Shown here: positions 10,447 to 18,743 of the stretch, in pieces | Numbering within the stretch: the stretch's first letter is position 1 | How the letters are laid out: every line of letters starts with the position of its first letter | UHGV virus genome: UHGV-0092215 | Strand: one strand, 5' to 3' | Source: a virus | DNA: 18,743 nucleotides | Notes under the pieces: model-generated | The model's input: the letters and a program-made list of their open reading frames with translations, nothing else | The model's database searches: none | What the model was told of the DNA's origin: nothing | Translations under genes and position numbers: made by a program

Positions 10447-10543
10447 ATACCCTCCTTTAATTGCGTAATACGCATATTAATTGGAACATACGACTTGCGC
10501 AAGTTGCTTTGCACATCACGCAAAAACAACATGTAATAGGCGC
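10447..10543. promoter_or_regulatory. divergent immunity control region (OR-like operators with PR and PRM-like promoters)
   Basis: Palindromes TTGCGTAATACGCAT (10461-10475), ACTTGCGCAAGT (10493-10504) and TTGCACATCACGCAA (10509-10523); plus-strand TTGCAC-17-TGTAAT places a start at about the cI ATG; minus-strand TTGCGC-17-TAATAT serves cro. Confidence 0.6.
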
Positions 10544-11236
10544 ATGAATATTGGAAACCGCATAAGAGAACTTCGCACTGCGAAGGGCCTGAAAATCGCT
10601 GATCTTGCAGAGGCTGTCGGTGTCGACGGCGCAAATATCTCTCGCCTTGAAACCGGCAAGCAGAAGTCATTTACTGAACAATCACTTAGTAAATATGCTG
10701 AAGCTTTAGGCGTTAGTGTCGCTGAGCTATTTACTCCTAGTGGAAATGCAACTACTGTATATAAAAACAGTGTAACAGCCCCACATATTGGAGATGACTC
10801 GGTGTTTAGAGTGGAAATTCTTGATGTTAGCGCTAGCGCTGGCGGAGGCTTTATTCAAGGTAGCGACGTTATAGATGTCATCAGATCCATCGAATACAAC
10901 AACGAGCGTGCTTTATCCATGTTCGGTGGTCGGGCAGCTGAGCAAGTGAAGGTAATCAACGTTCGTGGCGATAGCATGGCAGAGACTATTGAGCCTGGCG
11001 ACCTGATTTTCGTTGATATTTCAATACATGAATTCGACGGCGATGGTATATATGTATTTGGTTTTGATGACAAAATATATGTTAAGCGTTTGCAGATGAT
11101 ACCAGACCAATTGCTAGTAATATCAGATAACCCAAAATATCGAGAGTGGTCTGTCGATAAATCGAATGAGCATCGTTTTTATGTCTACGGGAAAGTAATG
11201 ATAAGCCAATCTCAGTCATTTAAACGCCACGCCTAG
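10544..11236 (+). CDS. cI: CI-like prophage repressor (N-terminal HTH, C-terminal S24 LexA-like peptidase domain)
   Basis: 230 aa from ATG 10544; HTH LKIADLAEAVGVDGANISRLETGKQ; C-terminal GDSMAETIEPGDLIFVD...YVKRL typical of S24 self-cleaving repressors. Confidence 0.9.
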   Translation: MNIGNRIRELRTAKGLKIADLAEAVGVDGANISRLETGKQKSFTEQSLSKYAEALGVSVAELFTPSGNATTVYKNSVTAPHIGDDSVFRVEILDVSASAGGGFIQGSDVIDVIRSIEYNNERALSMFGGRAAEQVKVINVRGDSMAETIEPGDLIFVDISIHEFDGDGIYVFGFDDKIYVKRLQMIPDQLLVISDNPKYREWSVDKSNEHRFYVYGKVMISQSQSFKRHA

Positions 11237-11452: not shown

Positions 11453-11818
11453 ATGAATCATTTATTCACATGCTCATTTTGTGGAGCAACCGAACTGGTA
11501 GCGATGAAGATCGTCGCAAAAGGTGGTAAGGACGAACCTGCTATCTGTTCGGAATGCGTAGTCACATGTGTAGAAAAAATGATCCTGACTAAAAAATCAG
11601 AGGCTGAAAAACCAACCCCTGATAACGAAATAATATCAGTCGATAAAAAACTATTTAAAGAGCTTCTTCAGCTTGTCCTCAACCTTCCTGATTTCGGAAG
11701 TAAGCTGGCTGCTGTTGACATTGATAGTGGCTCCACATCGACAAGTGAAACTTTTGTTCGACTTGAGCCAAGCGATTTTCTTCTTCGTCTTAGCGCCGCA
11801 CTTAGGGCATGCGGGTAA
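11453..11818 (+). CDS. small protein with ClpX-type N-terminal C4 zinc-binding domain (121 aa), first gene of the early-left operon
   Basis: ATG 11453 with GAGG RBS 5 nt upstream; CSFCGATELVAMKIVAKGGKDEPAICSECVVTCVEKMI resembles the ClpX N-terminal zinc-binding domain (CSFCGK...KLIAG...YICDECVDLC); C-terminal 75 aa unassigned and overlapped by an antisense ORF. Confidence 0.55.
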   Translation: MNHLFTCSFCGATELVAMKIVAKGGKDEPAICSECVVTCVEKMILTKKSEAEKPTPDNEIISVDKKLFKELLQLVLNLPDFGSKLAAVDIDSGSTSTSETFVRLEPSDFLLRLSAALRACG

Positions 11819-11941
11819 CGTAATTTCCTGGTTATCAAAAGCGCCCATAAACATCCCTCTTGGTTGTGTGAGAACACCAAGATACCACCGCGCCTGATGT
11901 GGTTAAAAGCAGGCCAAAGCAATAACAAGTAACTCCCTGTT

Positions 11942-11990
11942 CTGGCGGCCCGGTGTTTTCCCACTTGTCCGGTAACCGCCAGCCTTTTTC
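11942..11990 (+). terminator. terminator-like hairpin with T-run after the ClpX-zinc-finger-like gene
   Basis: CTGGCGG (11942-11948) pairs with CCGCCAG (11976-11982), then CCTTTTTC; the 27 nt loop is long for a canonical terminator. Confidence 0.4.
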
Positions 11991-12285
11991 AGGGCGCAAC
12001 GACGAGAGCATTGACGAGCAAGGCATAACGGCAGGTTCAATCCCTGCCACCGCTATACAGATGGCGGTGATGGGCAACGAAAAGGTCCGTTCAATTCGGA
12101 CACCGGCAGTGCTCTCTTCGTTGTGGTGAATGCGCAGGCTGATGCGCTAAACCGTGAGGGAGTGTCCCGAAAGGGTGCGTCACTGGTAATCAACCCATGC
12201 CGGAATATCGCAGCACCGGCCACCACAACCAAATCACGCTTAGGACCGTGATAACCGTAGTTCCAGTATTGCTGTGTGTAGTCTT

Positions 12286-12356
12286 GGCGGTACCAGGGTC
12301 TTCAACCTTATGCAAGGGGGCCGAAGATAATGTTCTACCTCGGTACCGCCCTTTTT
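12286..12356 (+). terminator. second terminator-like long hairpin with T-run in the ORF-free region
   Basis: GGCGGTACC (12286-12294) pairs with GGTACCGCC (12342-12350), followed by CTTTTTA. Confidence 0.35.
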
Positions 12357-12521
12357 ACGCAACAGAAAAGGGCATCACCGGGCGACGGGCTCATAACCCA
12401 ATCCACCCGGGCAAAAAGAAAGCGGTCTCTGCAAGCCGCCGACCAATGCAGGTGCCCTTCTCTGTTGTGTATGGAGAAACTAACTTTTTAGCGCCGGTGC
12501 AGAGGCGTTGAGGAACCGAGA

Positions 12522-13439
12522 ATGAACAATCCGTTTTTCAAAAATATGTTGGTGTATCGCCTTAGTCGCGATTTCACCATCAACCAGGAAGAGCTGGAAC
12601 AGCAGCTTGAACTATTTCGCTTCACTCCATGCGGTAGCCAGGATATGGCAAAAACCGGTTGGGTATCACCACTTGGTCAGCTGTCAGATCGCTTGCATCA
12701 CACTGTCAATAATCAAGTGTTGTTGGTTATTCGCCGGGAAGAAAAAATACTGCCATCTCCTGTCATTGCTGAAGAACTGCGCAAGCGTGTGTCGCGTCTG
12801 GAATCCGATCAGGGGCGTCGCCTCAAAAAAACTGAGAAAGATTCGCTGCGTGATGAAGTGTTGCACTCCCTGCTTCCTCGGGCGTTCTCCAAAAACTCGA
12901 CTGTTAGTTTGTGGATCAACGTCACCGACGGTCTGATCATGGTTGATGCAGCCAGCGCTAAACGTGCCGAAGACTCACTGGCCCTGCTTCGTAAAACTCT
13001 CGGTTCTCTCCCGGTGGTACCGCTGACTATGGAAACGCCGATCGAACTAACTATGACCGAATGGGTTCGTTCCGGTAGTGCGCCTGCTGGCTTTGGCCTG
13101 GGTGATGAAGCCGAGCTGAAAGCTATTCTTGAAGATGGCGGTATTGGACGCTTTAAAAAACAGACTCTGGTCAGTGACGAAATTCATGTGCATCTGGAAG
13201 CTGGCAAAGTAGTTACAAAGCTGTCTATCGACTGGCAACAGCGCATTCAGTTCGTTCTTTGCGATGACGGCAGCATCAAACGCCTTAAGTTCTCTAATGA
13301 GATTACTGAACAAAACGACGATATCGACCGTGAGGATGCGGCTCAGCGGTTCGACGCTGACTTTGTTCTAATGACCGGCGAGCTTATCTCTCTCATTAAC
13401 GGATTAACGACCTCTCTCGGCGGCGAAGCCAAGCGATAA
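12522..13439 (+). CDS. rdgC: recombination-associated protein RdgC homolog (phage-encoded)
   Basis: 305 aa; long collinear similarity to E. coli RdgC as I recall it ([81 protein letters not shown]); GAGG RBS. Confidence 0.9.
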
Positions 13440-13546
13440 ACACCAGGCAACAATTACCCTATAAGCATGGGTTGGGTTGCTGCACGCTAAATTCAGCAAT
13501 TCATTAATTTAATGGCGCGGTGCAGCGCGCCAATATTGAGAAAACC

Positions 13547-14086
13547 ATGAGTTACATTCAGACATTATCCGGCAAACACTTTAATTACCTCGATATCCAA
13601 CAGGACGATATCGTGATCGAAGATATCGCTACCGCGTTGTCTCATATCTGCCGCTTTGCAGGGCATCTTCCTGAGTTTTACAGCGTCGGCCAACATAGCG
13701 TTTTAACCAGCCACCTCGTTCCGCAGGAGTTTGCATTAGAAGCCCTGCTTCATGATGCCGCCGAAGCCTACCTACAGGACATCCCCTCACCGCTTAAGCG
13801 CCTGTTGCCTGATTACCAGGTGATCGAAGCTCGTGTAGACGCAGCTATTCGCCAGAAATTTGGCCTACCGATGGGGCAACACCCAACCGTGAAATATGCC
13901 GATCTGGTGATGCTTGCCAGCGAACGCCGCGATTTTGAGATTGACGAAGGTTCCGTGTGGCCTTGCCTCGAAGGAGTTGTCCCAACGGATCTATTCATCA
14001 TCAACCCAGTTCGTCCAGGCCAGTCATATGGCATGTTCATTAATCGCTTCAACGAATTGATGGAGCAGCGCCAATGCGCCGCATGA
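13547..14086 (+). CDS. HD-domain phosphohydrolase (YfbR-like 5'-nucleotidase family)
   Basis: H..H/HD signature (SHICRFAGHL ... LLHDAAEAY); ATG 13547 preferred over the ORF-track GTG at 13520. Confidence 0.75.
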   Translation: MSYIQTLSGKHFNYLDIQQDDIVIEDIATALSHICRFAGHLPEFYSVGQHSVLTSHLVPQEFALEALLHDAAEAYLQDIPSPLKRLLPDYQVIEARVDAAIRQKFGLPMGQHPTVKYADLVMLASERRDFEIDEGSVWPCLEGVVPTDLFIINPVRPGQSYGMFINRFNELMEQRQCAA

Positions 14087-14250
14087 AGGTAAAAGAACTC
14101 GTAGCGGAGGCTTTTGCCTCCGTTGCTGAATTGCCACCAAAGCATGCACCGCTTATGCGCGAAGTCGCCACCAGACTGGAAGCTACGTTCGCAGCATTAA
14201 AAGAGTCTCTGGTGCAACTGGAACAGGAACGTAAAGGTAAAACGCCATGA
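14083..14250 (+). CDS. small hypothetical protein (55 aa, MKVKELVAEAFASVAEL...)
   Basis: Below the ORF-track cutoff, translated by hand; start overlaps the HD stop (ATGA) and stop overlaps the next start (ATGA). Confidence 0.4.
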   Translation: MKVKELVAEAFASVAELPPKHAPLMREVATRLEATFAALKESLVQLEQERKGKTP

Positions 14251-14501
14251 CCGTATTTGAATATCTCCAGGCTCATCCAAATACCACCAGCGGTGAAATC
14301 GCCAAAGGCATGAACAAAACGACGCCAGCGGTCGCCGGAGCATTATCGCAACTCTATGGCACAGGCCGGATCGTGAAGTCTGGTGTTCGCAAGGGCATTC
14401 CAACATACCGTGTTAACGATATGCCGTTTGGGTGCAGTAACAGCCTAACCATGATGTTTAACCAGCTATTGAATAGCGCCAGACAGGGAGCAGCCCAATG
14501 A
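14247..14501 (+). CDS. small winged-helix-like hypothetical protein (84 aa)
   Basis: ATG 14247; TSGEIAKGMNKTTPAVAGALSQLYGTGRIV resembles small wHTH proteins; stop overlaps the next start. Confidence 0.55.
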   Translation: MTVFEYLQAHPNTTSGEIAKGMNKTTPAVAGALSQLYGTGRIVKSGVRKGIPTYRVNDMPFGCSNSLTMMFNQLLNSARQGAAQ

Positions 14502-15079
14502 CAGCACTCAACAAACAGGCGCTGCGTGAAGCGGCGGAGAAGGCAACTCAAGGTCAGTGGGTCGTTGAGTTCGACGATGAGGTTTACTCCACTAATGGCG
14601 TGAATAATGAGCAAATAGCCATGGTATTCAGTGAAAATGAAACGCGCGATGCAGCATTCATCGCCGCCGCTAACCCCGCCACCGTGCTGGCGCTGCTGGA
14701 TGAGCTGGAAGCCGCAGAGAGGCGCATAGCAGAACAAATCGCGATTGTTACTGCTGCTGAGAAACTGGTTCGCTGCAAAGGGCGCTATCACGGCGAGCTT
14801 AATTATCGCGCGCTGGCGAAATTGTTTGGCGTCACTGCGCCGGATTTACCACCACTTGAACATGAAAACGTTCACTACGCTGACGCCGCCGAGATGGAAA
14901 TAGCAGCATTACGCCAGCGGATTGTTGAACTGGAAGCACGAAAGGTATGCGTTCCAAGGATATCTAACGATGAATTCTGGTTGAGTTTTAATAATCGTAT
15001 TGTATTTCGTGAAGAAACGTATCGTAGCGCGGTAATTAAGTCGATAGAAGACGCTGGCATTGGCGTGAAGGGGGAGTGA
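14498..15079 (+). CDS. Ead/Ea22-like protein
   Basis: N-terminus MTALNKQALREAAEKATQGQW matches the conserved Ead/Ea22-like N-terminal motif as I recall it; GGGAG RBS. Confidence 0.7.
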   Translation: MTALNKQALREAAEKATQGQWVVEFDDEVYSTNGVNNEQIAMVFSENETRDAAFIAAANPATVLALLDELEAAERRIAEQIAIVTAAEKLVRCKGRYHGELNYRALAKLFGVTAPDLPPLEHENVHYADAAEMEIAALRQRIVELEARKVCVPRISNDEFWLSFNNRIVFREETYRSAVIKSIEDAGIGVKGE

Positions 15080-15081
15080 GT

Positions 15082-15387
15082 ATGAAACACGAAGACTATG
15101 ACGACCGTAAAGATTTGCACCTTTGGTTCGGCCTTTCCTATGCAGCGTTTCTGGTGATGCCTCGCGTAGCAATGATGCAAATGCCGAAGGAATGGCAAGA
15201 GAAGATGGCTGAACTGCTAAACCAATACGACGAAACCATTAATACGTCAGCATTTGGGGTGAAGGGTTGCCGCGTTCAAGCCCTTACCGGGGAAGGCAAA
15301 ATGATGAAGATGCCAGAGGAGTTGCTTAATTACCGACATCCCTCTCCAGAAACTAGGGCGTCACTGCTGAAAGAGAAAGGGAAATGA
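15082..15387 (+). CDS. hypothetical protein (101 aa)
   Basis: ATG 15082 with GGGGAG RBS 5 nt upstream (ORF-track start 15076 is GTG); no family assigned. Confidence 0.55.
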   Translation: MKHEDYDDRKDLHLWFGLSYAAFLVMPRVAMMQMPKEWQEKMAELLNQYDETINTSAFGVKGCRVQALTGEGKMMKMPEELLNYRHPSPETRASLLKEKGK

Positions 15388-15388
15388 C

Positions 15389-15766
15389 ATGGCACTCACG
15401 AAGAAACAACGCGCAGAGCTGCGTATGAAATTCGGTGGTCGCTGTGCTTATTGTGGCTGCGAACTTGGCGAAAAATGGCATGCAGACCATGTAGAAGCGG
15501 TACGAAGAAATATCAGCAACGGCTACGCAATGGACAGGCCAGAAAATGACACGGTCAGCAACATGGTTCCAGCATGCATTCCATGTAACTTGTTCAAAAT
15601 GTGCAGCACAGTAGAAGACTTTCGCAGCCGCATAGCCACTCAGGTTGATGTAACTCGCCGTGCGTCAAGAAGTTACCGCACAGCGGAATCATTTGGCCTG
15701 GTTAAACAGACTAACGCGCCAGTTGTGTTCTGGTTTGAGCAGTATCAAGAAGGGGCTACGGCATGA
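15389..15766 (+). CDS. HNH endonuclease
   Basis: CAYCGCEL...WHADHVEAV...N...VPACIPCNLFK is a classic HNH / zinc-finger nuclease motif; 125 aa. Confidence 0.8.
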   Translation: MALTKKQRAELRMKFGGRCAYCGCELGEKWHADHVEAVRRNISNGYAMDRPENDTVSNMVPACIPCNLFKMCSTVEDFRSRIATQVDVTRRASRSYRTAESFGLVKQTNAPVVFWFEQYQEGATA

Positions 15767-16089
15767 CAACTAACAAACAGGATTTAGACGACGCACTGGA
15801 CTTTGACCTTTTTGAAGGTGATTTCGGTACGCCATGCGATACCGAACTATCGAACAAAATTGTTACCTCTCGCGGTGAATACAAATGTCACATTTGCGCT
15901 GGCGAAATTTTAAAGGGTGAAAGCCATCGTAGTACGACGTGGAAATTCGACGGCGAACTCATGTCATATCGGTGCTGCAACGAGTGCTGTGTGGCAATGG
16001 TTAAAAGCGTCAATTGTGAATACGAAGAAGAAGACCCGATAGAAGCGCGTTACGCGCTGGGCCATCAACGCAGAGGATGGGCAGCATGA
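15763..16089 (+). CDS. Cys-rich putative zinc-binding protein (108 aa)
   Basis: ATG overlaps the HNH stop (ATGA) with AAGGGG RBS; CHICAGE...CCNECC motifs; no family assigned. Confidence 0.6.
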   Translation: MTTNKQDLDDALDFDLFEGDFGTPCDTELSNKIVTSRGEYKCHICAGEILKGESHRSTTWKFDGELMSYRCCNECCVAMVKSVNCEYEEEDPIEARYALGHQRRGWAA

Positions 16090-16790
16090 CAACTAACAAC
16101 CACCCGGCGCACGGTCCTGTATCACTCGATCGCCTGCACCAGATACGCGAAATACTCAGCAAAGCATCAGCACAAAGCGACGGCGGCAATCTCGGATACG
16201 CAATTGCTGATGCTGTGAAGGTGATTGATGGGGTGCTATCCATTCCGTCGACTCTACCATGTCCAGTGCATCTTGAGACGGGTCTTAAATTCGGCAAAGG
16301 TGTGCGCACTCAGTGCGTACTGGACGCATTGCGACGCCGTGCTGACTATTACGCTGAACTGGAAGCCATGACGCCGGAACAGCGAGCCGAACATGATGCA
16401 GGTATCGAAGCAATTAAAGCGATGTTGCCGAAGCCAGCCCAGCCGGATATTGAAATGCTGGCCTCTGCACTGACTAACGCTCCGTTAGCGCCGTCAGATA
16501 GGCAGGGCAGACCGAGAGCGCCGGTGGTGCCGGAGGAATGCAAAGAAGCACCTGCGTACGTCAAAGCACTGACGAAAGAGGGGGCGTATATCTATGGATT
16601 TAACGCCTGCCGCGCCGCCATGCTTCAGGCTGGCAACTCTCCGGTAACTCCGGATGGTTGGCAATTGGTTCCGAAAGAACCTACAGCAGCGATGAATAAA
16701 GCTGGCTGGGACGCAATGAACGAACATGATGCAATTAACCCGACGTATAGAGCTATGCTCGCAGCAGCACCGCAGCAGGAGAATGTATAA
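16086..16790 (+). CDS. hypothetical protein (234 aa)
   Basis: ATG 16086 overlaps the upstream stop (ATGA) with GAGG 9 nt upstream; Ala/Pro-rich middle; no family assigned. Confidence 0.6.
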   Translation: MTTNNHPAHGPVSLDRLHQIREILSKASAQSDGGNLGYAIADAVKVIDGVLSIPSTLPCPVHLETGLKFGKGVRTQCVLDALRRRADYYAELEAMTPEQRAEHDAGIEAIKAMLPKPAQPDIEMLASALTNAPLAPSDRQGRPRAPVVPEECKEAPAYVKALTKEGAYIYGFNACRAAMLQAGNSPVTPDGWQLVPKEPTAAMNKAGWDAMNEHDAINPTYRAMLAAAPQQENV

Positions 16791-17331
16791 CGTGAACAAT
16801 TTAATGATCGACCTTGAGTCCATGGGCAAAAGACCGAATGCCCCTATCGTCTCCATTGGTGCCGTGTTCTTCGATCCGCAAAGCGGTGAACTGGGTCAGG
16901 AGTTTTACACCGCCGTTAACCTTGAAAGCGCTATGGAGCAGGGAGCGGTGCCGGATGGTGACACTATTCTGTGGTGGTTAAGACAAAGCTCAGAAGCGCG
17001 ATCAGCAATCTGTGTTGATGATGCGATGCCGATATCGTCTGCCCTATCTGAACTGAGCCATTTCATTAATCGGCATTCTGATAACCCAAAATATTTAAAA
17101 GTTTGGGGCAATGGAGCTACTTTCGACAACGTTATATTGCGCGGCGCATATGAGCGCGCCGGCCAGGTTTGCCCGTGGCAATTTTGGAACGATCACGACG
17201 TCAGAACCATCGTCACATTAGGCAGAGTTGTGGGTTTCGATCCAAAGCGAGATATGCCATTCGATGGGGTTGCACATAACGCACTGGCCGATGCGCGACA
17301 TCAAGCAAAATACGTGTCCGCGATCTGGTAG
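16783..17331 (+). CDS. DEDDh-type 3'-5' exonuclease (DnaQ-like fold)
   Basis: LMIDLESMG (Exo I-like acidic motif), WGNGATFDN and HNALADA (Exo III-like His) from the sequence; start ambiguous among ATG 16783, GTG 16792 and ATG 16804. Confidence 0.7.
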   Translation: MYNVNNLMIDLESMGKRPNAPIVSIGAVFFDPQSGELGQEFYTAVNLESAMEQGAVPDGDTILWWLRQSSEARSAICVDDAMPISSALSELSHFINRHSDNPKYLKVWGNGATFDNVILRGAYERAGQVCPWQFWNDHDVRTIVTLGRVVGFDPKRDMPFDGVAHNALADARHQAKYVSAIW

Positions 17332-17402
17332 AAGTTGATTCCGGCCACCAGCAGAGACCTGTAATTTCCCCTGGGTGCAGCCAGGTTGTATGGAGAACGT
17401 CT

Positions 17403-17675
17403 ATGAATACTTTGTTTTTACTTATGGCTGAGTTCAACACGCCTAACATCGAGCTGTCAGCGGTATGCCAAAAGTATTTCGGTATGAGCCCTAACACAGC
17501 AGAAGCGAAAGCAAATGCCTGTCAGTTGCCGATCCCGACTTACCGTGTAGGAACATCACAGAAAGCGAAGCGCTGTATCAACATTCAGGATCTTGCTGAG
17601 TATATAGACCAACGGCGAGAAGAAGGCAGAATTGAATGGGAGAAAGTAAGAACAAATAGGCAAAGAAATAACTAA
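17403..17675 (+). CDS. xis: excisionase-like DNA-binding protein (PrtN/pyocin-activator family)
   Basis: MNTLFLLMAEF...VCQKYFGMSPNTAEAK...LPIPTYRVGTSQKAKRCINIQDLAEYIDQRR matches the PrtN-type excisionase pattern I recall; GGAG RBS 7 nt upstream. Confidence 0.7.
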   Translation: MNTLFLLMAEFNTPNIELSAVCQKYFGMSPNTAEAKANACQLPIPTYRVGTSQKAKRCINIQDLAEYIDQRREEGRIEWEKVRTNRQRNN

Positions 17676-17681
17676 CCTCAC

Positions 17682-17710
17682 AAAAAAACCCGCTTCGGCG
17701 GGTTAGTTTT
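17682..17710. terminator. bidirectional intrinsic terminator between convergent xis and the YafO-like gene
   Basis: AACCCGC-TTCG-GCGGGTT with a 7-A run upstream (a 7-U run on the minus-strand RNA) and AGTTTTCATCTTT downstream. Confidence 0.7.
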
Positions 17711-18137
17711 CATCTTTATAATTCTGTGCAATTCGCGCTAGATAGCTCATCACATCATGTTTTCTTGCTTTTCCATGTGCATCGGGATGCATAATAGCGA
17801 TGAGTGAATATTTATTCTCATAAAGCTCACCTTGAACATACACAAGACAAGCATCATTGTTAGGATCCCCTTTCTTACAGACCCTATCCGGCTGTGGACG
17901 ATTCCCTGGAAACTTGTTTGGCGGTAGACAAAGATGGATATGCATCAACCCAGCCCGGAAAGCGCCATAAGGCTGAGTATACGCAACGTCCCTACCGAAG
18001 TATTGCGGAAGCTCACCAGTCGCTTTGTATCTCAGGAAATCATCGATAATAGAAGCCTCTAGCTCCGGAAATTTGAGAAATACTTCATCAAAAAATTCAG
18101 CTTTGGTTGCTGGATTAATAGAGGCTTCTAAGTGCAC
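17703..18137 (-). CDS. YafO-family toxin-like protein (putative ribosome-dependent mRNA interferase homolog)
   Basis: 144 aa with GTG start; resembles E. coli YafO as I recall it (DDFLRYKATGELPQYFGRDVAY vs ADFISYKRDGVLPDIFGRDALY; HIHL; LVYVQG; LIAIMHPDAH); AT-rich relative to neighbours. Confidence 0.6.
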   Translation of the reverse strand: MHLEASINPATKAEFFDEVFLKFPELEASIIDDFLRYKATGELPQYFGRDVAYTQPYGAFRAGLMHIHLCLPPNKFPGNRPQPDRVCKKGDPNNDACLVYVQGELYENKYSLIAIMHPDAHGKARKHDVMSYLARIAQNYKDEN

Positions 18138-18153
18138 AGTCGTCCGCTATCGG

Positions 18154-18693
18154 TTAGTGAAATTGCATCGATTTTAGCTTATTTGAAGTGTAACTAGCTA
18201 GTGCTGCAATTCCTTCAAGATCCGCGCTTCCGTTAAAAGTAACAGTTTCTTTAAACATGCTCTTAATGTAACTGTTAAGACGAGTGACAGATGAACGAGC
18301 TTTAGCAATATGACGCCAGTAAACCTTCAGTTCTGACCTGATAAATTCAGGCAGAGGAGATTCAATTGTACGCTTCACTTCTTCTTCAAAAGCACGCAGA
18401 AACATTTCACATGCCTCTGTCGTATCTGTCCCGTTTTTGGTAACGAACTCACGAGCTTCTTGGCTATTAAGATCAATCAAACCGATATAGTAGTCATCTG
18501 CTGCGATAGTTAACTTTTGCAAGATCTCTTTACCCTCTTCCATTTTGCGTGAGAATTCCTCAACGGTAGGAGAGTGTTTAAAAGGTTTTGCAATCACGGG
18601 GGCTGGCTGGATGATGAACTCCTGCGCCATAGCAGCAGGACAAGCCAGAGGCCCGCACAATGCAGCAAAAGTAATGGCGTTAAACGGATTCAT
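18154..18693 (-). CDS. hypothetical secreted/periplasmic protein (179 aa) with N-terminal signal peptide
   Basis: ATG 18691-18693 with GAGG RBS 5 nt upstream; hydrophobic N-terminus ending AMA-QEF (AxA-type cleavage site); AT-rich; no family assigned. Confidence 0.6.
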   Translation of the reverse strand: MNPFNAITFAALCGPLACPAAMAQEFIIQPAPVIAKPFKHSPTVEEFSRKMEEGKEILQKLTIAADDYYIGLIDLNSQEAREFVTKNGTDTTEACEMFLRAFEEEVKRTIESPLPEFIRSELKVYWRHIAKARSSVTRLNSYIKSMFKETVTFNGSADLEGIAALASYTSNKLKSMQFH

Positions 18694-18743
18694 AGCAACC
18701 TCGACAGTTTTACTTACTAAGCAATAGCCTTGGCTATTTGGAG

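Follow-up and report, generated by a model that had tools for sequence, protein, structure and literature searches.

Four neighbouring genes near the excisionase gene of a lambdoid prophage, two of them nuclease genes, are probably independently exchanged cassettes

Four closely packed genes in the virus genome UHGV-0092215, two of which encode nucleases, raise the question of whether such neighbours form a nuclease system or have come together by chance. The window, the whole stretch of DNA that was analysed, has a length of 18,743 nucleotides. The initial annotation described a block coupled by overlapping start and stop codons, in which an HNH nuclease is combined with zinc-binding and exonuclease partners, and considered both ordinary phage functions and a role in anti-defence or exclusion. 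The four ORFs are indeed located there on the + strand, namely the genes encoding the HNH endonuclease (15389-15766), a Cys-rich protein (15763-16089), a 234-aa protein (16086-16790) and the exonuclease (16792-17331). Overlapping codons were found at two of the three junctions (ATGA at 15763-15766 and 16086-16089), but not at the exonuclease gene. Its start is most likely GTG at 16792, with a single base between it and the TAA at 16788-16790. This choice is supported by homologues, which begin with ATG at this codon, and by an AGGAG sequence 10 nt ahead of it. The roles assigned below to the four proteins are those suggested by family membership only. Quite probably, the segment forms that part of an early-left (PL-type) operon which is nearest to the excisionase gene, in a lambdoid prophage from a Citrobacter-like host, and it represents an array of independently exchanged single-gene cassettes, which are neighbours by recent recombination and not system partners.

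The genetic composition of the window includes a cI-like repressor gene and cro, which are divergent, followed on the + strand by the genes of RdgC, an HD phosphatase and an Ead/Ea22 protein, the four genes in question, a PrtN/excisionase-like gene and a terminator. The placement of the block in the accessory arm was correct, and it can be specified as the excisionase-proximal part of the early operon. In an identical contig (L001), the host genes zur, dinF and lexA lie beyond these genes. The PrtN-family or excisionase-like protein of 90 aa (17403-17675, + strand) matches PF11112 with an E-value of 3.2e-24 and PHROG 1300 ‘excisionase’ with an E-value of 2.9e-40. It is followed by a bidirectional intrinsic terminator (17687-17704) having a 7-bp GC-rich stem and T runs on both strands, at which the + strand transcript ends, as does the YafO operon that converges on it. 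No sigma-70-like promoter that could serve lysogenic expression was found on the + strand between 10000 and 18743, and the Rfam scan of the whole window returned no matches.

The four genes constitute the last part of a packed early-left transcript of ten genes (13520-17331, + strand), in which neighbouring genes overlap by up to 13 nt or are separated by at most 2 nt. Since the packing is equally tight in all ten genes, the left edge of the block at 15389 is arbitrary. The beginning of the array (13520-14501, + strand) is a conserved backbone of the arm that comprises the gene of a YfdR-like HD dNMP phosphatase, an ORF of 58 aa and the gene of a winged-helix protein of 84 aa, with profile matches to PHROG 318 (E-value 8.5e-97), PHROG 12248 and PHROG 1687. 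Of the best 80 exonuclease-anchored loci, 71 contain the HD gene and 59 contain the gene of the 84-aa protein at a distance of at most 5 kb. The next stretch (14498-15387, + strand) comprises variable cassettes, an Ead/Ea22-like protein (14498-15079) and a protein of 101 or 103 aa (from 15082 or 15076 to 15387); the matches obtained here are PF13935 (E-value 3.3e-24) and PHROG 3527, the latter in the C-terminal part of the profile only. The DNA of these cassettes is common to few related loci. They are missing from an E. coli FAM21845 prophage, which is otherwise collinear and which also has no HNH gene.

This region is the counterpart of the λ exo-xis region and of yfdPQRST of the E. coli element CPS-53. 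It resembles the exo-xis regions of λ and Stx phages and CPS-53 in its position immediately before xis in the early-left operon, in the presence of Ead/Ea22 and DUF551-type modules and a YfdR-like HD protein, and in early transcription, small non-essential genes and strong mosaicism (PMC10834534, PMC8614690, PMC4776307). The early transcription, dispensability and mosaicism of the exo-xis region have been described (PMC10834534, PMC8614690). In place of the λ genes orf60a, orf61, orf63, orf73 and ea8.5, none of which is present, the prophage arm carries genes of RdgC, the HNH endonuclease, the DexA-like exonuclease and the zinc protein related to DUF7576; λ exo itself is not in the window. The reading as ordinary phage DNA, specified as the hypervariable part of a lambdoid prophage that corresponds to exo-xis, fits best (PMC10834534, PMC8614690, PMC4776307).

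The four genes might nevertheless make up a single nuclease system serving anti-defence or superinfection exclusion, where HNH would cut DNA, the zinc protein and the 234-aa protein would target or regulate, and the exonuclease would degrade the products. They are adjacent, tightly packed and encoded on the same strand, regions of this type typically keep the anti-restriction and exclusion genes of lambdoid phages, and some relatives of the 234-aa gene contain a Lar restriction-alleviation domain. However, the packing reaches six upstream genes never proposed as members, and the distribution data largely refute this reading, which is extremely improbable. In viral loci anchored on the Cys-rich gene, the HNH gene was found in 4/80 and the exonuclease gene in 8/80. 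Anchoring on HNH (67-99% identity) gave the Cys-rich gene in 0/80 and the exonuclease in 5/80, and anchoring on the exonuclease gave HNH in 6/80 and the Cys-rich gene in 3/80. The co-occurrence is therefore 0-10% in every anchored set, each set being the best 80 matches, a biased sample with many close relatives. At eight distant genomic loci, neither the HNH nor the exonuclease gene was found. The tblastn searches with the window proteins detect homologues of these proteins and would miss non-homologous nucleases of the same role. Among 5426 E. coli genomes, none covered at least 80% of positions 15000-17760, the best coverage being 41%.

The order of the four genes was seen only in the identical contig family. 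Linkage kept across diverged relatives, which characterises an operon-level unit, is not observed for them. Their homologues are independently distributed, the very outcome that the initial annotation had named as speaking against its coupled block. A search with PADLOC defence profiles found no system-level match; it yielded generic weak domain similarities only, of HNH to PtuB (E-value 2.5e-6) and of the exonuclease to a Cas-associated DEDDh protein (E-value 1.6e-4), with no partner genes. The neighbourhood of the Cys-rich gene is highly diverse, including 55 upstream clusters in 93 loci and 61 downstream clusters in 95 loci, and breaks of nucleotide homology coincide with gene boundaries. 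In the preferred reading of exchanged cassettes, closely packed genes would be co-transcribed, and each would be swapped between phages on its own by recombination at gene boundaries. The ‘nuclease-rich operon’, which resembles a defence or anti-defence locus, would then be a false lead produced by chance neighbourhood in a recombination-prone region.

The first of the four is the HNH gene (15389-15766, + strand). It encodes a free-standing HNH (beta-beta-alpha-metal) endonuclease of 125 aa, as the initial annotation had recognised. The protein matches PHROG 2118 with an E-value of 4.5e-58 and Pfam HNH (PF01844) at 20.7 bits (cut-off 21.4, E-value 4.7e-4). The motif residues read from the sequence are in the expected order, D33-H34, N58 and N67 (CNxxK variant), and two CxxC pairs, C19/C22 and C63/C66, form a Cys4 zinc site. 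The gene is 94.5% identical in nucleotide sequence to gene 056 of phage HK225, where it is located in the nin region. The exact protein is also encoded in a nin-type context that has no Cys-rich gene (L011). The cassette is thus present in both phage arms, including the arm opposite to the one studied, which is a further point against a four-gene system. Nucleotide homology begins at 15370-15389 and stops at 15740-15770.

The HNH gene behaves as a mobile single-gene cassette, and its product is probably a selfish homing-type or nicking nuclease of the free-standing kind. Homing is suggested only indirectly, by the presence of this gene in both nin and exo-xis surroundings and by the sharp ends of its homology. 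The protein resembles free-standing phage HNH homing endonucleases and HK225 gp056 in being a small HNH protein with a Cys4 zinc site and in the near identity of the gene between unrelated flanks in both arms, with homology stopping sharply at the gene ends. It differs from them in having no known target site, intron or intein. It does not belong to the packaging type, since no terminase gene adjoins it.

The HNH gene and the Cys-rich gene are joined by an ATGA overlap, and they could be regarded as a two-gene module, for example, a nuclease with a DNA-end-binding or inhibitory partner. A weak association of the two genes may exist, because the Cys-rich gene follows the exact HNH allele in 6/7 distinct places, and HNH is located immediately downstream of a Cys-gene relative in three viral loci (L034, L035, L039). 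The pair recurs in a second context (L012-L015), where it precedes DUF550, DNA methylase and DinI genes. However, the pair in that context is 95-100% identical to the window, so its recurrence reflects recent common descent. The location of HNH, now upstream and now downstream of the Cys-rich gene, is more in keeping with a mobile nuclease gene than with an operon of fixed order. Moreover, HNH is not a neighbour in about 88 of the 95 Cys-gene loci, and all the best 80 HNH loci have no Cys-rich gene. A two-gene module is thus very unlikely, even taking into account a weak structural likeness of the zinc protein to PARP-type DNA-break-binding fingers.

The boundaries of the Cys-rich gene have a peculiarity of their own. 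A 16-nt direct repeat, GCATGACAACTAACAA, flanks the cassette in two exact copies on the + strand, the left one at the HNH stop and Cys-gene start (15761-15776) and the right one at the Cys-gene stop and the start of the 234-aa gene (16084-16099). By calculation, chance alone would give about 0.04 such pairs in 18.7 kb. In two loci (L011 and L237), the 3′ end of HNH is fused straight to the gene starting with MTTNN via the sequence of this repeat. The start ATGACAACTAACAA is common to two unrelated genes and is preceded by many differing sequences across loci.

The Cys-rich protein (15763-16089, + strand) consists of 108 aa with eight cysteines and appears to be a single-zinc ribbon with C42, C45, C72 and C75 as zinc-ribbon cysteines; its N-terminus contains the conserved acidic motif ALDFDLFxGDFG. 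The protein lies below the gathering threshold of Pfam DUF7576 (21 bits, cut-off 27), and 49/85 members of its family match DUF7576 at an E-value of at most 0.01 (best 9.4e-10), so it is filed as related to DUF7576 and not as a member. The DUF7576-like family comprises 652 clusters, nearly all of them stand-alone proteins of about 100 aa from phages and prophages, and four cysteines and one arginine are invariant in this phage zinc-ribbon family. The only fusion partners found for the domain, DUF5662 and unannotated extensions, were not informative. As a by-product of the analysis, the 108-aa protein finds its place in a large uncharacterised family of phage zinc ribbons.

Possibly, the zinc-ribbon protein binds nucleic acid. 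A more elaborate proposal is that proteins of this family sense or block DNA ends in the manner of a PARP finger. In this prophage, the protein would then work with its neighbours, the mobile HNH nuclease and the exonuclease of the DexA type, either against phages whose DNA is modified or in shielding phage DNA ends from host nucleases. If true, the three would make up a small module for anti-defence or exclusion that is new. The structural resemblance to PARP-type fingers that prompts this proposal is weak, and the features defining zf-PARP (CCHC ligands, 28-30 spacing and a significant sequence or fold match) are not found in the 108-aa protein, whose PARP-finger identity is kept as a weak structural lead only; such a sensor is highly improbable. 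The profile of the Cys-rich family searched against PDB sequences gave chance matches to C2H2 fingers only (E-value above 0.5). A link of this family to Lar restriction alleviation was also considered and dropped, as weak Pfam matches occur in 2/85 members and a rough Lar model, derived from two domain segments of the same sequence, finds 0/85.

The 234-aa protein (16086-16790, + strand) has piecewise PHROG matches and belongs to the DUF550/DUF551 family of exo-xis genes. It had been listed with the 108-aa protein as having no assignable family; both have PHROG matches and many homologues, so that statement holds only in part. The protein is a mosaic of modules at approximately residues 1-52 and 50-110, a Pro/Ala linker at 105-165 and a C-terminal module at 160-234, with Ala and Pro amounting to 25% of residues. 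The N-terminal, middle and linker modules are 66-94% identical to those of DUF550 (PF04447)/DUF551 (PF04448) mosaic proteins, the genes of which sit at the same place upstream of the exonuclease. The protein differs from them in having neither domain (the Pfam search gave no matches at E-values up to 10) and in its C-terminal module, which is a different small helical unit after the NSPVTPDGW linker. In three relatives (P0059, P0063 and P0064), PF04447 is inserted between query residues 52 and 54. In other relatives, the C-terminus is replaced by PF04448 after the conserved NSPVTPDGW linker. A nucleotide breakpoint lies inside the gene at about 16230. Exchange in this gene may thus take place at domain boundaries as well, with modules swapped among relatives. 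PF04447 is a dATP/dGTP pyrophosphohydrolase domain, and the 234-aa protein seems to be a non-catalytic mosaic which has lost this domain or never gained it. The structural check proposed for it was of limited help, since the AF2 model is of low quality (pLDDT 66, pTM 0.28) and yielded no match below an E-value of 3 when folds were searched with it.

The last gene before the excisionase (16792-17331, + strand) encodes a DexA-like DEDDh 3′-5′ exonuclease of 179 aa. The DEDDh assignment made earlier is well supported. The protein matches PF16473 over profile positions 1-177 of 177 (E-value 1.4e-74, 250 bits, cut-off 27) and PHROG 255 (E-value 1.4e-87), and it matches the T4 DexA structures 8KEN/8KEL with an E-value of 2e-10. 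Residues D7, E9, D112, H162 and D167 align with D7, E9, D119, H186 and D191 of DexA. The exonuclease would be made early after induction or infection. It may trim DNA ends, recover nucleotides or break down the modified DNA of rival phages, the last being the activity reported for the bacterial homologue EcD.

According to a metabolic reading, the conserved genes of the arm, namely those of the HD dNMP phosphatase, the DUF550 family and the exonuclease, cooperate in nucleotide-pool or DNA-turnover metabolism during lytic growth, with HNH and the Cys-rich gene as passengers. The HD gene lies no more than 5 kb from the exonuclease in 71/80 loci, as does the DUF550-family N-module in 64/80, and the upstream neighbour of the exonuclease is a DUF550-family mosaic in 51/78 loci. 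T4 DexA is reported to scavenge host DNA (PMC12153337), and the enzymatic activity of PF04447 would suit the same pathway. However, the supposed pathway is incomplete here, since the 234-aa protein has no PF04447, and the shared neighbours may reflect common descent only, because the exonuclease-anchored loci are at least 87% identical in the exonuclease. Also, the nucleotidase activity of YfdR is weak, and DnaA binding has been reported for it instead (PMC4776307). On balance, metabolic cooperation is unlikely.

Exclusion, not supported for the block, is plausible for the exonuclease alone, since it is a homologue of T4 DexA and a bacterial DexA homologue, EcD (HREX), has been reported to block T4. 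According to a 2025 paper, EcD protects E. coli from T4, its target being the 5hmC-modified DNA of T-even phages (PMC12153337). The exonuclease might then be a prophage-borne defence gene of the HREX/EcD type destroying 5hmC-modified T-even DNA, a tentative possibility of low probability. It shares with T4 DexA and EcD the family PF16473 and all DEDDh catalytic residues. Like EcD, it has no Asp at the position of the DexA tetramer contact D90, where S83 of the exonuclease and A78 of an EcD-like protein are aligned. Citrobacter is reported as the second most common genus with EcD-type homologues (PMC12153337). Nevertheless, its identity to EcD-like proteins is no more than 37%, and these proteins are unverified proxies found by primer match (189-aa exonucleases retrieved with the forward-primer 17-mer; the reverse-primer 23-mer gave no match). 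It also differs from T4 DexA in lacking the extra loops of the latter and in having the non-acidic V146 at the position of D169, the acidic residue that together with a conserved Trp recognises 5hmC, where the alignment is gapped and of low confidence. The reported protection by EcD comes from plasmid expression (PMC12153337), and expression of the prophage exonuclease in a lysogen is doubtful because the gene lies deep in the early operon and no promoter of its own was detected. The exonuclease of this Citrobacter prophage would provide a cheap test of whether the anti-T4 role recently claimed for the DexA family holds for early-operon prophage genes.

In 77 of 79 related loci, the gene that follows the exonuclease, at the excisionase position, encodes a small protein (72-102 aa) that falls into one of four clusters, of which three are unannotated and one is a PrtN-like family.

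The window comprises the immunity region and the early-left arm of a lambdoid prophage. The cI-like S24 repressor is encoded on the plus strand (10481-11236), and the Cro-like gene that it faces is on the minus strand. On the plus strand, 3′ of the repressor, the encoded products are, in order, a ClpX-type zinc-finger protein, RdgC, a YfdR-like HD phosphatase, a 58-aa ORF, an 84-aa winged-helix protein, an Ead/Ea22 protein, a 101/103-aa protein, the HNH, Cys-rich, 234-aa and exonuclease proteins considered here and a PrtN-family/excisionase-like protein; a bidirectional terminator lies at 17687-17704. A metagenomic contig identical to the window (L001) runs on into the host cupin, zur, csbD-like, dinF, lexA, dgkA and plsB genes, and Citrobacter is the source of most close homologues. 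Counterparts of the arm are found in λ's exo-xis region, in that of Stx phages and in the CPS-53 yfdPQRST cluster. The exo-xis region has been described as transcribed early, dispensable, highly mosaic and affecting the lysis-lysogeny decision, and its Ea22 variants have swappable C-terminal domains, including DUF551 (PMC10834534, PMC8614690). In CPS-53, YfdR is the HD protein and DUF551 is carried by YfdS (PMC4776307). The four genes are an ordinary example of an exo-xis-type region, a new instance and not a new system.

All four predicted ORFs were found: HNH (15389-15766), Cys-rich (15763-16089), 234-aa (16086-16790) and exonuclease (end at 17331). The assignment as HNH was upheld by PHROG 2118 (E 4.5e-58) and by the residues C19/C22, D33-H34, N58 and C63/C66-N67; the Pfam HNH score of 20.7 bits is slightly below the 21.4 cut-off. 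The DEDDh assignment also held, as PF16473 matches at full length (E 1.4e-74) and D7, E9, D112, H162 and D167 align with the catalytic residues of T4 DexA. The overlapping start and stop codons proposed earlier are present at two of the three internal junctions as ATGA overlaps, whereas the exonuclease most likely starts with GTG at 16792, one base beyond the preceding stop; the corresponding codon of a homologue is ATG, and AGGAG is situated 10 nt upstream.

The initial annotation regarded these genes as a coupled nuclease-rich block (15389-17331) with a possible anti-defence or exclusion role. Ten genes (13520-17331) all share the same tight spacing, which leaves the block without a natural left edge, and no plus-strand promoter-like sites were detected within the early-left arm. 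The four-gene order was seen in no contigs other than those identical in sequence to the window. A megablast search with 15000-17760 gave some match in 575 of 5426 complete E. coli genomes, none of which covered at least 80% of the interval (the best, 41%). Linkage was scanned with the window proteins in the best 80 viral loci for each of three anchors. The Cys-rich gene was accompanied by HNH in 4/80 and by the exonuclease in 8/80; HNH, by the Cys-rich gene in 0/80 and the exonuclease in 5/80; and the exonuclease, by HNH in 6/80 and the Cys-rich gene in 3/80. Genes directly next to the Cys-rich gene form 55 clusters upstream (93 loci) and 61 downstream (95 loci), with HNH adjoining it in four and three loci, respectively; a weak association of HNH with the zinc protein may exist. 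Both HNH and the exonuclease are absent nearby in eight diverged genomic loci (Pantoea, Edwardsiella, Enterobacter, Erwinia, Serratia and others). Among phage records, HNH alone matches HK225 (94.5%), where it is located in the other arm, between ren and ninB of the nin region. In locus L011 the exact HNH protein follows Ead/Ea22 in a nin-type context, succeeded by DinI, Rem and RusA, and lacks the Cys-rich gene. The E. coli FAM21845 prophage has the same backbone without HNH, the Ead gene and the 103-aa gene. A Cys-rich protein 97% identical to that of the window has an unrelated 114-aa ORF before it; after it come a DUF550 protein of 344 aa, the exonuclease, a small ORF at the excisionase position and a likely integrase. 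Thus, linkage is not conserved and the homologues are distributed independently, the pattern that the initial annotation itself had named as contradicting the block.

ORFs of ~680 aa lie near or adjoin the Cys-rich gene in several loci (L012, 1903-3945; L065, 5378-7417; L086, 509-2554); the L012 copy has a weak DNA methylase match, and only two were seen to cluster together.

Ends of blastn alignments of 13001-17800 against all loci cluster at 14500, 15370-15389, 15740-15770, 16080, 16230, 16750-16790 and 17380-17390, corresponding to gene boundaries and one point within the 234-aa gene. The 16-mer GCATGACAACTAACAA at 15761 is repeated at 16084, so that the Cys-rich and 234-aa genes begin with the same 14 bases and a direct repeat flanks the Cys cassette; about 0.04 such pairs are estimated to occur in the window by chance. 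In L011 and another locus, L237, the HNH 3′ end runs straight into the MTTNN... gene via the 16-mer sequence, and in many other loci the same start is preceded by unrelated DNA. The pattern fits a mechanism in which recombination at short, conserved sequences of gene starts would exchange cassettes.

The 234-aa protein is a domain-less variant of a mosaic family usual in the slot upstream of the exonuclease. Its partial relatives number in thousands, and its parts (~1-52, 50-110, the Pro/Ala-rich linker and 160-234) each match different protein sets. In three relatives (P0059, P0063 and P0064) PF04447 (DUF550, dATP/dGTP pyrophosphohydrolase) is inserted exactly between query residues 52 and 54; others possess PF04448 (DUF551) as the C-terminus past a conserved NSPVTPDGW linker, and some a Lar-like domain. 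Even with E values up to 10 accepted, Pfam gave no domain for the window protein, and its structure model, poor overall, gave no fold match. Among the best 80 exonuclease-anchored loci, 64 contain the N-terminal module, and the family is the upstream neighbour of the exonuclease in 51/78. As a separate observation, the 101/103-aa ORF (15076-15387) matches PHROG 3527 over its C-terminal part only (135-231 of 233), which suggests that it is the C-terminal domain of a mosaic protein of the Ea22 type, separated from the rest.

The 108-aa protein is a predicted single-zinc ribbon that possibly binds nucleic acids. It has 55 homologues in Enterobacterales prophages, and a profile search collected 652 clusters at 50% identity (233 with E up to 1e-10), which are stand-alone proteins of ~100 aa in almost every case, with no informative fusion. 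C42, C45, R56, C72 and C75 are invariant among 85 diverse members. Pfam DUF7576 is matched by 49 of them, with E 9.4e-10 at best; the score of the window protein, 21 bits, does not reach the cut-off of 27. A good AF2 model (pLDDT 85.6) comprises an N-terminal helix, a three-stranded sheet bearing the cysteines and two helices; no PDB match was found by sequence. A relationship of the family to Lar was looked for and none was found. Residues 11-22 (15790-15830) form a conserved acidic-aromatic motif, ALDFDLFxGDFG, of which close homologues all retain L12, F14, L16, F17, G19, D20 and G22; the motif may resemble clamp-binding or SSB-tail-like peptides.

In sequence comparisons the exonuclease has no PDB relatives other than the T4 DexA structures 8KEN and 8KEL (E 2e-10). 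A 2025 study describes DexA homologues as frequent in the bacteria Escherichia, Citrobacter and Klebsiella and reports that EcD, one such homologue, cleaves only 5hmC DNA and, expressed from a plasmid, protects E. coli from T4 (PMC12153337). The published EcD forward primer led to 189-aa exonucleases that have a similar C-terminus and carry A78 where the study places it, and the window protein is 37% identical to these primer-selected proxies. It resembles EcD in having Ser at the DexA D90 position; the D169 position aligns with Val in an unreliable stretch of the alignment. By analogy, the exonuclease alone seems a reasonable candidate for an exclusion role. The gene after the exonuclease falls, in 77/79 related loci, into one of four small-protein clusters (72-102 aa) at the excisionase position, PrtN-like being the only annotated one, which makes the exonuclease the arm's stable last gene; as these loci are close relatives (at least 87% identical), this stability may reflect common descent.

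Several further features were noted. A 67-aa minus-strand ORF (11651-11854) with two CxxC-type pairs and no PHROG match runs antisense across the 3′ portion of the ClpX-zinc-finger gene (121 aa, 11453-11818); 3′ of it on its own strand, the terminator 11623-11596 (12-bp stem and T run) is the strongest terminator-like hairpin of the region. The ~700 nt that separate the ClpX-zinc-finger gene from rdgC (11819-12521) contain no called gene in the window, L001 or the collinear FAM21845 prophage, no Rfam match, and a 104-aa ORF (12197-12511) without a PHROG match; they could be the site of an antitermination or regulatory RNA element. The prophage end, from the PrtN/excisionase-like gene up to the host genes (window 17403-18743; L001 11318-13473), has no integrase and no recognisable YafN antitoxin. 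In the place of the integrase lies a converging minus-strand operon encoding a 179-aa protein (signal-peptide-like N-terminus, PHROG 8416) and then a YafO-family toxin, and many E. coli genomes are annotated with the same exonuclease-PrtN-YafO order.
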